A DNA stretch of 14,968 nucleotides from a virus (IMGVR_UViG_3300010413_000285); one strand, 5' to 3'; shown: positions 2,622 to 6,374, counted from the first letter of the stretch. Notes: generated by a model not told the origin, from the letters alone. A program made the numbers and translations.

Positions 2622-2881
2622 TGAATTGTCCAAAATGTGATAGCTCCCAATTTTATTATGTTCAACGAGTGTATGAATATCACTGGATTGACAAGGTAGA
2701 AGATGGCAATATTGAATTGTCATGCCTTGATGACACAGCAGTAGATTCCGATTATATGCCGCACCTGCGATGTGAAGCATGTGGCCGTGCATTTAATCTA
2801 GATATGGAAGAAATTAAATTGGATGAGAATGAGGAGCCATGCGTGCCTATCAGCGTGGAGGTAAGACGTGAAGGTTCGTGA
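2621..2881 (+). CDS. small zinc-ribbon protein (CPKC...CEAC), 86 aa
   Basis: TAATG junction with the phosphoesterase stop. GAGGG SD lies 5 nt upstream. Two CxxC pairs. The track start at 2600 is in the same frame but inside the upstream gene. Confidence 0.6.
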   Translation: MNCPKCDSSQFYYVQRVYEYHWIDKVEDGNIELSCLDDTAVDSDYMPHLRCEACGRAFNLDMEEIKLDENEEPCVPISVEVRREGS

Positions 2882-3152
2882 TGGGTTTGTAAGTAATTCA
2901 AGCTCAGCAAGTTTTACTATCAACAGAAGTAAACTGAGCAAGATTCAAATTAAAAGAATTCATGATCATATCTTTCATGCTCGTAGCCGTCCAGATTTAT
3001 TTCCATGGCTAGAGGCGTGGGATATTGAAGAGAATGATGATTTGAATATCATTACTGGTTTCACATGGATGGATAACTTTGATATGGAATTATATCTTCG
3101 TGACTTTGTGAAAGTTGCAGATGAAGATATTATTTGGGATAAAGAAGGATGA
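2868..3152 (+). CDS. paralog 1 of the N-terminal 'GF[VI]SxSSSxSF' family (94 aa)
   Basis: GTG start 6 nt after GGAGG (2857-2861). N-terminus (M)KVRDGFVSNSSSASF matches the two downstream ORFs. The C-terminal regions differ. Confidence 0.6.
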   Translation: MKVRDGFVSNSSSASFTINRSKLSKIQIKRIHDHIFHARSRPDLFPWLEAWDIEENDDLNIITGFTWMDNFDMELYLRDFVKVADEDIIWDKEG

Positions 3153-3637
3153 AAATCAGAACAAGCTTTGTAAGCAATTCAAGTTCAAGTTCTTTCCTTG
3201 TTGCCTTTCCCCGTCTTCCGAAAAGCGTGGAAGACGTTCAAGATATGGTATTTCAAGGAGAAACACATCTAGCCAATCCGTATGAGTTCGATGATTGGAT
3301 CAAAGAATTTCCAGCTAGGGAAGTTTCAGAAATTATTTGGAACGGGATTAAGAATCAAATTCCAAATAATAGAGCCAAGATTATTGACGAGATGCATTCG
3401 ATAATTTTGGACTTTGATAAATACTACAAGCTGGGACGCCACGAATACCAAAGCTTTGATGAGGATGAATATCGCTTGGACAACAATAAAATTGTAGAAG
3501 ATTTCATGCAAGAGCATTCTGGCGAATACATGTACTGTGTAGAATATTCTGACAACGGAGAAGGTCAGATTGGTGTAGCCATGGAACATGGAGACCTATT
3601 CCATAATCTTCCACATATTGTTTCGAGCAATCACTAA
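3149..3637 (+). CDS. paralog 2 of the N-terminal 'GF[VI]SxSSSxSF' family (162 aa)
   Basis: ATGA overlap with the previous stop, AAGGA upstream. N-terminus MKIRTSFVSNSSSSSF. Confidence 0.65.
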   Translation: MKIRTSFVSNSSSSSFLVAFPRLPKSVEDVQDMVFQGETHLANPYEFDDWIKEFPAREVSEIIWNGIKNQIPNNRAKIIDEMHSIILDFDKYYKLGRHEYQSFDEDEYRLDNNKIVEDFMQEHSGEYMYCVEYSDNGEGQIGVAMEHGDLFHNLPHIVSSNH

Positions 3638-3855
3638 TGAAATATAAGAACGGCTTTATTTCAAGTTCAAGTTCAAATAGTTTCATTACATTCACTCCAG
3701 ATAGTCATTTCAACCATAAAAAAGAAGTCAAGAACAATGACGGCTTGGACTTTTGTTTTATGTGCGGGCAACCAACTAAAAAGATTCCAGGTGTACTTGC
3801 CAGAGAATTCTATTGCGTCTGTCAAAACCCAAACTGTGAATGGTATAAGAACTAA
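3637..3855 (+). CDS. paralog 3 of the same family (72 aa) with a C-terminal Cys cluster
   Basis: N-terminus MKYKNGFISSSSSNSF. C-terminus CFMCGQ...CVCQNPNC. TAATG-type junctions on both sides. Confidence 0.6.
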   Translation: MKYKNGFISSSSSNSFITFTPDSHFNHKKEVKNNDGLDFCFMCGQPTKKIPGVLAREFYCVCQNPNCEWYKN

Positions 3856-4937
3856 TGATTAAGATTGTAAAGTCTGAAAGATATAATTATCTGTTCAACA
3901 AAACTACTGGATTCTTTGCTCGATGGGGAGAAACAAAGGAAGACAATCCAGATATGTCTCCCTTTGGACCTGAGATTGCAGATATTGAAATTTCTACTGT
4001 ATGTCATGGCATTGGAAACTATATGGATTCTAGAAAGCCATGTCCGTGGTGTTACAAATCAAATACTGGATGCGGAATTAATATGTCTCTTGACACATTC
4101 AAAACTGTATTCCACAAACTACCAAGAAATCTAACACAGATTGCATTTGGTATTGGTGATATTGATGGAAATCCTGATCTCTGGCGTATCATGGAGTATT
4201 GTAGGAGCAACAGCTACAATAGTATTGTCCCTAATATTACAGTTAATGGCATGGGTGTGGATAAAGAAGTCTCGAAAAGATTGGCCGACCTATGCGGCGC
4301 TGTCGCTGTTAGTCGCTACCATATTAGTGATGTGTGCTACAATGCTATTAGCAATCTTAGCGAGGGTGGGCTGAAACAAGTAAACATTCATCAATTGCTG
4401 GCCGCTGAAACGTATGATAGCTGCTTTCGACTATTGGAGGATACACAAAAAGACGCTAGGCTCAGTGGGCTTAATGCCATTGTTTTCTTAATGTTGAAGC
4501 CTAAGGGAGATAGAAATAAATATCACGCTATTGATGGCATGAATAAATTCAACAAGCTTATCAAGACCGCTCAAGATATGGGTGTGTCTGTTGGAATGGA
4601 TTCGTGTACTGCTCCTTTGATGTTTAAGTTTGCTGAAGCGTTTGATCAACCTGGTATTATTCCATCCATTGAGCCGTGCGAAAGTACATTATTCTCAATT
4701 TATATTAACGCTGATGCTGAAGTATTTCCATGCTCTTTTACTGAAGGAACTGAAAAGTGGGAGCGTGGTATTTCAATGTTGGAAGTTAATGATTTTATGA
4801 AAGAGGTGTGGTTTGGACAAAGGCTTAGCGAATGGCGAGAGAGTTTGATGGCATCCTCTAAGGGATGTAATCAATGCACTATGCAAATTCATTGCCGTTC
4901 ATGTCCTGCGTTTGATATCACACAATGTAAGGAATGA
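3855..4937 (+). CDS. radical-SAM/SPASM-like Cys-rich enzyme with a non-canonical Cx12Cx2C cluster (360 aa)
   Basis: C50-x12-C63-x2-C66 (nt 4002-4052) sits where CxxxCxxC normally does. Downstream lie a GGEP-like Gly-rich motif FGIGDIDGNPDL and a TNG-like ITVNGMG. The C-terminus has 7+ Cys (DSCTAP, EPCES...FPC, CNQCTMQIHCRSCPAFDITQC), resembling a SPASM/twitch auxiliary-cluster domain. Confidence 0.5.
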   Translation: MIKIVKSERYNYLFNKTTGFFARWGETKEDNPDMSPFGPEIADIEISTVCHGIGNYMDSRKPCPWCYKSNTGCGINMSLDTFKTVFHKLPRNLTQIAFGIGDIDGNPDLWRIMEYCRSNSYNSIVPNITVNGMGVDKEVSKRLADLCGAVAVSRYHISDVCYNAISNLSEGGLKQVNIHQLLAAETYDSCFRLLEDTQKDARLSGLNAIVFLMLKPKGDRNKYHAIDGMNKFNKLIKTAQDMGVSVGMDSCTAPLMFKFAEAFDQPGIIPSIEPCESTLFSIYINADAEVFPCSFTEGTEKWERGISMLEVNDFMKEVWFGQRLSEWRESLMASSKGCNQCTMQIHCRSCPAFDITQCKE

Positions 4938-5434
4938 AAAGGGAACTTCTGTTCATAGTCCTGTGTTGCTTTTGTTGTGGCGACGAACAGGAAACTAGGA
5001 TTCCAGTTTACCAGGAATTGCCACGATGTCTGAACTGTGGCCAGGACTATGTTCCAGATGAACCAGATATACCTGACCCAAGGCCAAGAGTATATCTTCA
5101 ACCAAACGAGCTTCTATTTTATTTCACAACAGATGACGAAGAACCTTATCCTCCACAATATATAGATATTGTTAATACATCAAAAGGTAATGTAATTATT
5201 ATTGATGCATTTATTGCTAAAGATGAAGAGTGTTATATATGTGGAGATGATATACACTTTGAATTGACTGAGCCAAATCTTCCACAAGTATTGGAAGACG
5301 GCGAAAGCTTACAATTAGAAGTACACTTTTCCTGTTCCACTTCACAAGAAGGAGCAATTTTGAAAGTTTATACTAGCTTTGCACCTGATGAAATTTTGCA
5401 AGCTAGATTGTCTGGTAAAGTATTTGTTTGGTAG
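4934..5434 (+). CDS. Cys-rich acidic protein with a hydrophobic N-terminal signal-like segment (166 aa)
   Basis: ATGA coupling to the upstream gene. N-terminus MKRELLFIVLCCFCCG. Further CxxC pairs (CLNCG, CYICGDD). Pro/Asp/Glu-rich. Confidence 0.55.
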   Translation: MKRELLFIVLCCFCCGDEQETRIPVYQELPRCLNCGQDYVPDEPDIPDPRPRVYLQPNELLFYFTTDDEEPYPPQYIDIVNTSKGNVIIIDAFIAKDEECYICGDDIHFELTEPNLPQVLEDGESLQLEVHFSCSTSQEGAILKVYTSFAPDEILQARLSGKVFVW

Positions 5435-5444
5435 GAGGCTTATA

Positions 5445-6374
5445 ATGAAATGGTTGTGCATGTTAATAGGTATGATTTCTATAGGATCATGCGCTACCAC
5501 TATTCCGCCTGAAATTTTAATAATACGCAGACATGAGCAATATGCTAAGTTAGATATAGAGGAGAAAAAACTAGCCGAAAAAATAATGAGCAAGGCTGTT
5601 CGTAATGACAGAAAGAAATATTATTTTGAAAAGCTCAAGTTATTGCTAGATACCCCTACTGCATCGCGTTCTGTGATTGGTGAGGCGCAAAAGAAAGAAA
5701 TTAAAAAATCGATACAAGAAAGCAAAGAAGAGAGACAGGCCGCAGTAAGTGAAAGAAAAACCAGCGTAGAAGAATATATGACTCAGGAAGAATTCTATGA
5801 GTCTGCAAAAAGCGATAGGCATTGGCGTGGATATTCTCCGGAAGGTTGGGATCAAACCTATTTTTATGTAGTTGATGATGACCCACTTGATTTATTAGTA
5901 CATATTCGTGTGCGCCTGTTAGGAGATATAGAAGATATCGAACGTATCTTACAGTTAGAAGATTCAATCGAGAAGCACTTATACATTGAAGGATTCTCAG
6001 TTAATTTGGTATTTGTAGGATGTTCTGATGATAATGACGATGTATTCGATGTTAATGTTGATTCTAGTAAATGGCCGACTAGTCATAATTGGACGGGTGG
6101 ATATCAAGGACTAGCTCATGAACTTATGCACCTGATGGGCCTTCCAGATGAATATGATAGAATAGAGAATCATGCTAATAATAAGTTTCTTCCTATCAAG
6201 CGGCGCTTGGAATTATTTTTAGAACAAATGGACGAAGAAGTTCCCGCAGATGCATATAAGGGAATCATGTGTAACCATTTTAGAAAGCCTTTAGAAAGAC
6301 ATGTGTGTGCTGCTGTAGGACTTGGCGAGGCTTGTATTAAAGCTAGAATGAAGGCATTTCATTCGAAGGAATAA
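5445..6374 (+). CDS. lipoprotein with an HExxH zinc-metallopeptidase-like motif (HELMHLMGLPDEYD)
   Basis: GGAGG (5433-5437) 7 nt before ATG 5445. The track start at 5379 is in frame but lacks an RBS. Signal peptide MKWLCMLIGMISIGSC carries lipobox IGSC. Motif pattern is HExxHxxGxxDE. Confidence 0.7.
   Translation: MKWLCMLIGMISIGSCATTIPPEILIIRRHEQYAKLDIEEKKLAEKIMSKAVRNDRKKYYFEKLKLLLDTPTASRSVIGEAQKKEIKKSIQESKEERQAAVSERKTSVEEYMTQEEFYESAKSDRHWRGYSPEGWDQTYFYVVDDDPLDLLVHIRVRLLGDIEDIERILQLEDSIEKHLYIEGFSVNLVFVGCSDDNDDVFDVNVDSSKWPTSHNWTGGYQGLAHELMHLMGLPDEYDRIENHANNKFLPIKRRLELFLEQMDEEVPADAYKGIMCNHFRKPLERHVCAAVGLGEACIKARMKAFHSKE

Follow-up and report, generated by a model that had tools for sequence, protein, structure and literature searches.

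What does one short, nearly identical N-terminus do on three otherwise unrelated proteins, and does the enzyme encoded directly behind them act on it? The question is raised by a stretch of viral DNA, IMGVR_UViG_3300010413_000285, whose 14,968 nt (the window, to whose full length the window coordinates below refer) carry three tandem genes for such proteins, A, B and C, followed by an open reading frame (ORF), D, for a radical-SAM/SPASM enzyme. We found that what the three share at the N-terminus is a genuine tag under strong selection at the protein level, and that genes of the tag family are linked to this enzyme family exclusively, at close range and on one strand.

Three adjacent genes share an N-terminal tag

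The genes in question are the following.

2868..3152, + strand: tag protein A (94 aa, GTG start), the tag VKVRDGFVSNSSSASF followed by an "A-type" body
3149..3637, + strand: tag protein B (162 aa), N-terminus MKIRTSFVSNSSSSSF, the most widespread body class
3637..3855, + strand: tag protein C (72 aa), the tag MKYKNGFISSSSSNSF followed by a Cys4 zinc-ribbon-like body
2868..2915 (A), 3149-3196 (B) and 3637-3684 (C), + strand: the 16-codon tags, equivalent segments
3855..4937, + strand: ORF D (360 aa), radical-SAM/SPASM enzyme and conserved partner of the tag family

A preliminary description of this DNA had noted three ORFs with a near-identical N-terminus and unrelated bodies, and both halves of that description hold. 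The starts of A, B and C share M-K-x-[RK]-x-[GS]-F-[VI]-S-[NS]-S-S-S-x-S-F, the N-terminus of A reading (V/M)KVRDGFVSNSSSASF. When the window was translated in six frames, this expression matched three times, each time at an ORF start, and it matched nowhere in 200 shuffles. Past residue 18 the bodies of A, B and C have no BLAST similarity to one another (best E > 6). The genes also run into each other: the A/B and D/E junctions, E being the next ORF, overlap in ATGA and the B/C and C/D junctions in TAATG, and a GGAGG, the ribosome-binding site of A, lies 8 nt 5' of the GTG at 2868. These overlaps and the GGAGG support a coupled operon, and with it the earlier suggestion that A, B and C are coupled in translation to each other and to the gene behind them.

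The tag is selected as protein in a large family

We scanned all related loci and collected 391 distinct tag proteins; 389 distinct gene starts define the consensus M1 K2 [ITV]3 R4 x5 G6 F7 V8 S9 N10 S11 S12 S13 [STAC]14 S15 [FY]16 [IVLC]17-18. At each Ser position of the tag both AGY and TCN codons are frequent, and all six Ser codons are used. Because the two codon types mix at every Ser position, we conclude that the tag is selected as protein; a nucleotide-level element (promoter, recombination site or RNA) is ruled out by the same six-codon usage. A glycyl-radical motif, which would call for an invariant Gly in R-V-x-G-[FY], was likewise considered and rejected, as G6 is Ser in B of the window and in many B-type homologs. 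The same position is Asp in deltaproteobacterial cassettes.

What follows the tag is highly diverse. Tag proteins are 70-280 aa long (median 133), and 93% of their bodies are net acidic. BLAST sorts 379 bodies into 107 clusters, of which 77 have a single member. The B-type body is the commonest (75 members in 62 loci); 23 full-length homologs of B were collected, and the conserved C-terminus of this family reads EYSDN...AMEHGDLF...PH..SSNH. Next comes the A-type body (43 members in 39 loci, with one homolog at L004:7699-7971), marked by W-D-I...G-x-T-W-M-D-N-F-x-M. A CxxC shortly after the tag occurs in 24 of the 391 proteins, and tag protein C shows a weak similarity to the Ogr_Delta zinc finger of Pfam.

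The preliminary description recognised no known family in the tag, and the searches agree. Neither A, B and C nor the tag proteins KP15_97 and KP15_102 of a cultured phage have a match in Pfam, NCBIfam or PADLOC, and no Pfam domain was found in 125 diverse body representatives. Only PHROGs gives a family for the tag proteins, phrog_7397 (1e-12 for B; confined to the N-terminus for A). The enzyme matches phrog_7293 (9.1e-80 for ORF D), and both families are annotated "unknown function". A literature search on the motif string and on phage radical-SAM/SPASM systems found no description of the tag family or of its link to the enzyme in the searchable corpus.

The preliminary description had proposed a wide search with the N-terminal motif as a regular expression or profile. 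An ordinary homolog search with a 40-aa tag profile gave short fragments alone, and an exhaustive profile search was used instead. Over 1.84 billion representative proteins it returned 20,580 matches at E <= 1e-3 (50%-identity clusters), to be read as an upper estimate, given how short and Ser-rich the profile is. Among the 150 best matches nearly every one begins at residue 1, and such internal copies as were examined proved to be two tandem units fused together, mostly still starting with Met. The motif is thus strictly N-terminal, belongs to a large family and, as described below, co-occurs with the radical-SAM gene. Neither outcome named in the preliminary description as refuting it, a known domain or a lack of any co-occurrence, was therefore obtained. 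Two complete tag-protein units per ORF, the second mostly beginning Met-Lys, were seen in P0174, P0175, P0177, P0178, P0180, P0183 and P0229; these could be true fusions or read-through caused by sequencing errors, or the phages they come from may recode a stop codon.

We modelled tag protein B with AlphaFold2 and obtained a confident fold (predicted local distance difference test, pLDDT, 88.6) in which the score drops below 50 (~40) over residues 1-10, and strand beta-1 is made of residues 13-20. The first 10 residues of the tag, predicted to be unstructured on a confident fold, should therefore be accessible. The predicted fold of B has no fold match in the PDB.

The tag and the enzyme stay together across phages

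Loci were inspected as 20-kb pieces of contigs, and linkage was scored within 10 kb. A first enzyme-seeded scan of IMG/VR found tag genes within this distance in 51 of 61 loci, with 1-13 tag genes per locus and the nearest at a median of 464 bp. A second scan, with another seed pattern and new loci, found them in 50 of 57 (median nearest 250 bp, 19 within 100 bp). Over both scans 101/118 loci are linked, with 31 within 100 bp; the tag genes always lie on the strand of the enzyme. The largest array has 13 paralogs for one enzyme (L034). Seeding with the tag instead placed the enzyme within 10 kb in 41 of 76 loci, and farther off on the same contig in at least 13 more. When all ORFs of 144 loci were clustered, just two widely shared families emerged, with the tag family present in 125 loci and that of the enzyme in 105; no third conserved component, peptidase or exporter, is shared across these loci.

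Gene order varies: tag genes stand 5' of the enzyme in the window and 3' of it in most loci. The linkage is kept while enzyme identity falls from 59% to 25%, across phages, contigs of archaeal metagenome-assembled genomes and bacterial chromosomes. Taken with the 25 of 33 genome loci described below, these counts bear out the idea that the radical-SAM gene is a specific partner of the tag, and the partnership is evolutionarily persistent.

Cultured phages carry the pair as well. KP15-like and RB43/RB16-like phages of the T4 type have the enzyme (KP15_135), a B-type tag protein orthologous to B of the window (KP15_102) and a second tag protein (KP15_97). Among cultured-phage records, 172 have the enzyme and 175 the B-type tag protein, and the two are spread over genera in the same way. 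These members were reached through the tag-seeded IMG/VR scan and KP15_102; tblastn of B of the window against cultured phages gave no match, and a second body type behaved likewise. Tag proteins of nearly the same type as in KP15-like Klebsiella phages also occur on L208, a contig of 178,077 bp, a length similar to that of KP15, in a Flagellimonas marina assembly (NZ_JBHSCL010000010.1); either a phage genome or contamination may have entered the assembly of a bacterial isolate here.

Could the co-location be inherited synteny, with a tag that matters for structure or translation in a growing family of phage ORFans and has no functional link to the enzyme? A single ancestral arrangement may underlie many of the phage loci, and the cultured-phage evidence comes from a single clade. 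We nevertheless consider this highly improbable. The linkage survives the fall in enzyme identity from 59% to 25% across phages, archaeal contigs and bacterial chromosomes, the order of tag genes and enzyme differs among loci, and codon usage excludes a nucleotide-level element.

The enzyme has the predicted fold of a maturase

The radical-SAM/SPASM-like character given to ORF D in the preliminary description stands, and its cluster motif is corrected here to C-X12-C-X2-C; the canonical C-X3-C-X2-C is found in relatives. In this motif, C50-X12-C63-X2-C66, the three Cys are invariant among 62 homologs. A motif finder run on 74 homologs scored 30 as the canonical CX3CX2C and most of the others as a version of it whose first loop has 6-16 residues. 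Judged by its sequence, ORF D carries the radical-SAM three-Cys motif in an expanded-loop form. The first loop ranges from CX3C to CX16C within one orthologous family (L008-L202), being CX12C in the window and CX7C in KP15. Toward the C-terminus ORF D has a second Cys set (C275, C293, C338-x2-C341-x5-C347-x2-C350, C358), which may form a SPASM domain; it scores just below the cut-off of Pfam SPASM (20.6 bits, cut-off 21.5) and below that of TIGR04085 (21.8 bits, cut-off 27). Enzymes of the KP15 type lack the first CxxC of the SPASM motif. Homologs of ORF D form ~3,500 90%-identity clusters; many have Pfam Radical_SAM and/or SPASM domains, many pass PF13186, and several are named "radical SAM protein with 4Fe4S-binding SPASM domain" by JGI.

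The AlphaFold2 model of ORF D, built on 62 homologs, is of high confidence (pLDDT 92.6, predicted TM-score 0.91) and contains a predicted partial (beta/alpha)6 TIM-barrel core. Its closest structures are the peptide and protein maturases SuiB, SkfB, anSME, CteB and ChlB, with 309 residues aligned to SuiB. A sequence-profile search of the PDB gave weak matches to BtrN and SkfB and spurious ones to PPR repeats; structure comparison, not this search, decided the fold assignment. According to the model, ORF D has a maturase-type fold. The scores of curated NCBIfam maturase models against the enzyme are all far below their cut-offs, which makes ORF D a distinct family within the maturase structural class. 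A second, smaller radical-SAM gene without SPASM (296 aa, ~20-25% identical to the main enzyme) was seen at L006:5026-5916 and L098:~4744-5541. It sits 5' of tag arrays, and both loci also hold the main enzyme (in L006 as a fragment, 12030-12434).

Such a fold is what one would expect if the system followed the classical logic of ribosomally made, post-translationally modified peptides, or RiPPs, with the tag as a recognition leader only and a promiscuous enzyme modifying the variable bodies, as ProcM does with prochlorosins. One enzyme with many precursors, a conserved N-terminus and a hypervariable remainder fit this logic too. However, the bodies are predicted to be folded, with tag residues 13-20 within the fold; they have no common residue or motif on which one reaction could act; and neither a leader peptidase nor an exporter is conserved. 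We regard modification of the bodies as distinctly unlikely.

In bacteria the pair mostly stands beside a STAND NTPase

A tag-seeded scan with one genome per species gave 33 loci, 25 of which contain the enzyme. At 15 loci a tag protein of ~131-148 aa lies beside an enzyme homolog of 25-31% identity, mostly directly 5' of the enzyme gene. The hosts of these 15 are Acidobacteriota, Verrucomicrobia, Chloroflexota, Cyanobacteria, Pseudovibrio (Alphaproteobacteria) and Deltaproteobacteria. In 11 of them the pair belongs to a four-gene cassette consisting of a ~950-aa SMEK_N + NACHT/STAND NTPase (Avs2-like), a ~130-aa ORF, the tag protein and the enzyme.

L220:6736-11502: four-gene cassette
L221:7008-11431 (Pseudovibrio sp. 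Alg231-02): four-gene cassette
L213, L217, L222, L225, L227, L228, L230, L231, L234: four-gene cassette also present

The NTPase matches Pfam SMEK_N/NACHT at 8e-29 to 5e-45 and PADLOC Avs2 at 1.8e-23. The L220 cassette has integrases on its flanks together with a large ORF, putatively methyltransferase- or restriction-enzyme-like from its sequence, and no virion genes were seen near it; the L221 cassette is flanked by an ORF with a Pfam HNH_2 domain and by phage-like genes. The body type of the bacterial tag proteins has homologs among the phage paralogs (best 4.6e-11). The ~130-aa gene was considered as a tag-less paralog of the tag protein and rejected, as no similarity between them was found. 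The four-gene cassette looks like a candidate for an undescribed defence system.

Possible targeting to a shell or virion

The bacterial loci bear on another suggestion of the preliminary description, that the shared N-terminus is a cargo tag for a shell of major vault protein (MVP), encoded further along the window.

12803-14968, + strand: MVP-like gene, running off the end of the window; Pfam Vault_3 / MVP_shoulder in the L002 ortholog, which is 86% identical

This suggestion fails as a general explanation. An MVP gene lies within 10 kb in 1 of the 76 tag-seeded loci, and no MVP homolog was found in the 33 genome loci, bacterial cassettes included. Homologs in the whole phage collection come from three uncultured huge phages (LR756500, LR756501 and LR756503; ~41% identity), and in one of these phages neither a tag gene nor the enzyme lies within 20 kb of MVP. 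Among cultured phages no record gave an MVP match, as against 175 with the B-type tag protein.

More broadly, the tag might be a targeting signal that sends its proteins to the virion, to an MVP-like shell, to a secretion route or to a protease, the radical-SAM gene being a mere syntenic neighbour in a plastic region. Tandem arrays of diverse small proteins with a strictly N-terminal tag would suit such a role, as would the invariance of the tag across very different hosts and the distance of 20 kb between tag genes and enzyme in KP15. We still find it quite improbable, for several reasons apart from the rarity of MVP near tag genes. The tag-enzyme pair occurs in bacterial STAND NTPase cassettes and integrase-flanked islands, and the fact that tag and enzyme stay tied at a locus near which no virion genes were seen (L220) counts against capsid or shell targeting. 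The tag contains no Glu and hence no (L/I)xE site. Finally, random placement in genomes of 50-550 kb would not yield median gaps of 250-464 bp.

A proposed mechanism

We suggest, giving the proposal an even chance, that the enzyme modifies the exposed tag at the N-terminus of folded proteins that serve in conflict between phage and host, following a RiPP-like logic and not that of a canonical RiPP cluster. Genes A-D would form a two-component system of one radical-SAM/SPASM maturase and its substrates, the latter being small folded proteins, acidic for the most part, whose bodies are of many unrelated kinds and whose tag is common to all. Tag residues ~1-12 (M-K-I-R-x-G-F-V-S-N-S-S) would serve as a flexible arm, and residues ~13-18 (S-S-S-F-h-h) would open the first beta-strand. 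We infer that the enzyme acts on the tag proteins by recognising the arm and performing a radical reaction within it, because the arm is the sole feature common to all substrates. Every member of the family would then gain the same modified N-terminal feature, whatever its body.

Candidate chemistries can be drawn from the structural neighbours and from precedent. A side-chain crosslink might form on F7-V8-S9 or on the F16-x-x triad, from the aromatic ring to a C-beta, in the manner of triceptide synthases, which crosslink aromatic-X-X triads (PMC11499958). An ether or other crosslink, Ser oxidation like that of anSME, or oxidation or epimerisation of Ser or Asn may also be considered.

In phages the substrate gene would have been expanded to arrays of 2-13 paralogs beside the enzyme; in bacteria a single substrate-enzyme pair would work next to a SMEK-STAND (Avs2-like) NTPase in mobile defence islands. 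Given the phage arrays and the bacterial pairing with this NTPase, the modified proteins most likely act in phage-host conflict.

Several observations weigh against modification of the tag. Seventeen of the 118 enzyme-seeded loci lack a tag gene inside the 10-kb range, and ~20 tag-seeded loci have no enzyme, many of them at contig ends. KP15_97 and KP15_102 lie ~20 kb from KP15_135, which shows that adjacency is not obligatory. No RiPP recognition element (RRE) or PqqD-like domain was found in ORF D by Pfam or NCBIfam; ahead of the cluster motif there is only a part of ~45 residues with a three-stranded sheet (residues 2-24). This N-terminal domain shows only a slight excess of conservation over the rest of the enzyme (36% versus 24-28% identity between window and bacterial enzymes). 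The tag is near-invariant while the enzyme falls to 25% identity, which is unusual for leader-enzyme pairs and would also fit a partner universal in cells. Moreover, the support comes throughout from gene neighbourhood and predicted structure.

An adaptor role for the tag proteins would draw on the same linkage evidence. In such a scheme the tag docks the proteins into the enzyme and the bodies recruit targets (host proteins, nucleic acids or metabolites), so that the enzyme modifies the target and not the tag protein. If one enzyme used many adaptors, these should look as the tag proteins do, hypervariable in the body and invariant in the tag, and the 13 paralogs per enzyme in L034 would be explained. 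On the other hand, the closest structural relatives of the enzyme act on the bound peptide or protein itself, many bodies are acidic stretches of 70-100 aa with no recognisable binding domain, and each bacterial cassette has one tag protein. On balance we think adaptors unlikely.

If the tag itself is modified, a more far-reaching picture can be drawn, which we offer tentatively and hold to be doubtful. The pair may be an unrecognised post-translational modification system of phage-host conflict, in which the enzyme would install a covalent feature (an F-x-S cyclophane, a Ser-derived crosslink or an aldehyde) on the N-termini of folded proteins. Bacteria would use one such protein in a SMEK-STAND (Avs-like) immune cassette, and large phages would have captured the pair and diversified the substrate into arrays of as many as 13 modified effectors or decoys against host immunity.

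The tag-enzyme system appears to be spread over large phages and bacterial defence islands. Were modification of the tag confirmed, one enzyme family (~3,500 90%-identity clusters) would serve up to ~20,000 50%-identity clusters of folded substrates, two large "hypothetical protein" families, phrog_7397 and phrog_7293, would be named and linked, and a new protein modification connected to STAND-NTPase immunity would be suggested.

Other genes of the window

Two genes directly behind ORF D had been taken as further parts of the system.

4934..5434, + strand: Cys-rich secreted or lipoprotein-like ORF (166 aa), a neighbour and not part of the conserved module
5445..6374, + strand: HExxH lipoprotein (309 aa from ATG 5445, lipobox IGSC), a lineage-specific neighbour

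No homolog of the Cys-rich ORF was found in 235 related loci, which leaves it in the window alone, and the HExxH lipoprotein, weakly similar to M6-type peptidases, is limited to the window and its close relatives L002-L005. The lipoprotein as leader peptidase and the Cys-rich protein as a partner were both rejected, since neither is conserved with the pair; their membership in the system is not borne out. The lipoprotein start, previously placed at TTG 5379, is most likely ATG 5445, which is preceded by GGAGG. Four ORFs on the + strand contain an HExxH motif (5445-6374, HELMH; 6457-6966, HELRH; 9635-10195, HEVAH; 10693-11385, HELMH), and three of the four have a lipoprotein-type signal and a Cys lipobox, an unusual number of predicted envelope metallopeptidase-like proteins per 6 kb of phage DNA.

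Just 5' of the tag genes lies a calcineurin-like metallophosphoesterase (1893-2621, + strand; Pfam 1.2e-13, phrog_1649 3.7e-45). It is also present in L002-L005, L013, L036 and L061 and is not general. tRNA genes for Arg(tct), Leu(caa) and Asp(gtc) on the + strand, at 8032-8107, 9177-9264 and 11392-11470, are consistent with a large phage genome. ORFs 7279-7848 and 12034-12564 (+ strand) are listed together for an RNase T/DEDD-type exonuclease, recorded by Pfam in the syntenic L002 ortholog, and for a candidate Nudix-like hydrolase, suggested by Nudix-box-like sequence alone.

Comparison with known systems

To our knowledge, radical-SAM/SPASM maturases are known almost wholly from short-peptide natural products and a few protein substrates (sulfatases, QhpC). 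The tag-enzyme loci share with RiPP loci a maturase gene beside precursor genes that have a common recognition sequence. They differ from those of the RiPP maturases SuiB (streptide), SkfB, CteB and ChlB in that the substrates would be predicted folded proteins of 70-280 aa, not short peptides, and that a recognisable RRE and a conserved leader peptidase or exporter are absent. A canonical RiPP cluster, with a short precursor, a cleavable leader and an unstructured core, does not describe them: the median tag protein has 133 aa, B is predicted to fold confidently, and a cleavable leader with a free core does not fit because tag residues 13-20 are strand beta-1 of B. The RiPP layout proposed in the preliminary description thus survives in part. 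The tag, the radical-SAM partner and the maturase fold stand; the peptidase, the canonical leader and core, and the MVP shell offered as an alternative do not.

In prochlorosins with ProcM, and in NHLP and Nif11 precursors, one enzyme serves many paralogous precursors with a near-identical N-terminal region and divergent remainders. Their leaders of ~60-80 aa are cleaved off, and their cores are short and unstructured; here, in contrast, the conserved part has 16 residues and runs into the fold. The sulfatase-maturing anSME is a structural neighbour of ORF D, but the tag consensus does not contain its target motif (C/S)-x-(P/A)-x-R, and the bodies of tag proteins are unrelated to sulfatases and to each other. 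For the bacterial homolog L230, sulfatase_rSAM reaches 18.5 bits where the cut-off is 349, and this model is absent among the NCBIfam matches of the window enzyme.

The tag arrays, with a short, strictly N-terminal peptide on diverse proteins encoded in tandem, also recall the internal proteins of T4 (IPI-III, Alt), which carry a short conserved N-terminal capsid-targeting sequence and come from a hyperplastic tandem locus. T4-type prohead proteases cut at an (L/I)xE site. The tag does not match a capsid-targeting sequence of this type: there is no sequence similarity, the absence of Glu excludes an (L/I)xE site, and the tag, tied to a radical-SAM enzyme, is also found in bacterial cassettes with no virion genes seen close by.

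With Avs/AVAST systems the bacterial cassettes share an NTPase with SMEK_N and NACHT that matches Avs2 models, reaching 55 bits against the NCBIfam Avs2 equivalog (cut-off 1000). Avs systems have not been described with a tag protein and radical-SAM pair, and the window has no STAND NTPase.

A described parallel in layout is found in the STAND/vWA conflict systems, in which variable precursors with a conserved terminal FxSxx peptide are encoded with a radical-SAM/SPASM gene (Kaur et al. 2020, PMC7159879). Like FxsA/FxsB, the present system has such a motif (F7-V8-S9-N10-S11 in the tag), a dedicated radical-SAM/SPASM gene and, in its bacterial branch, a neighbouring SMEK-NACHT NTPase. Unlike FxsA, whose F-x-S-x-x-COOH is C-terminal, it has the motif at the N-terminus (residues 7-11). 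MPTase, vWA and MoxR components are absent here, and phage arrays are not described for the FxsA/FxsB system. The FxsB model is not among the four NCBIfam matches of the window enzyme or the best 25 of the 30-38 families matched by each bacterial homolog. Overall, the enzyme class and the logic of an enzyme with tagged substrates are already known; folded substrates with an N-terminal tag, phage arrays of such substrates and the association with a STAND NTPase in bacteria appear to be new.

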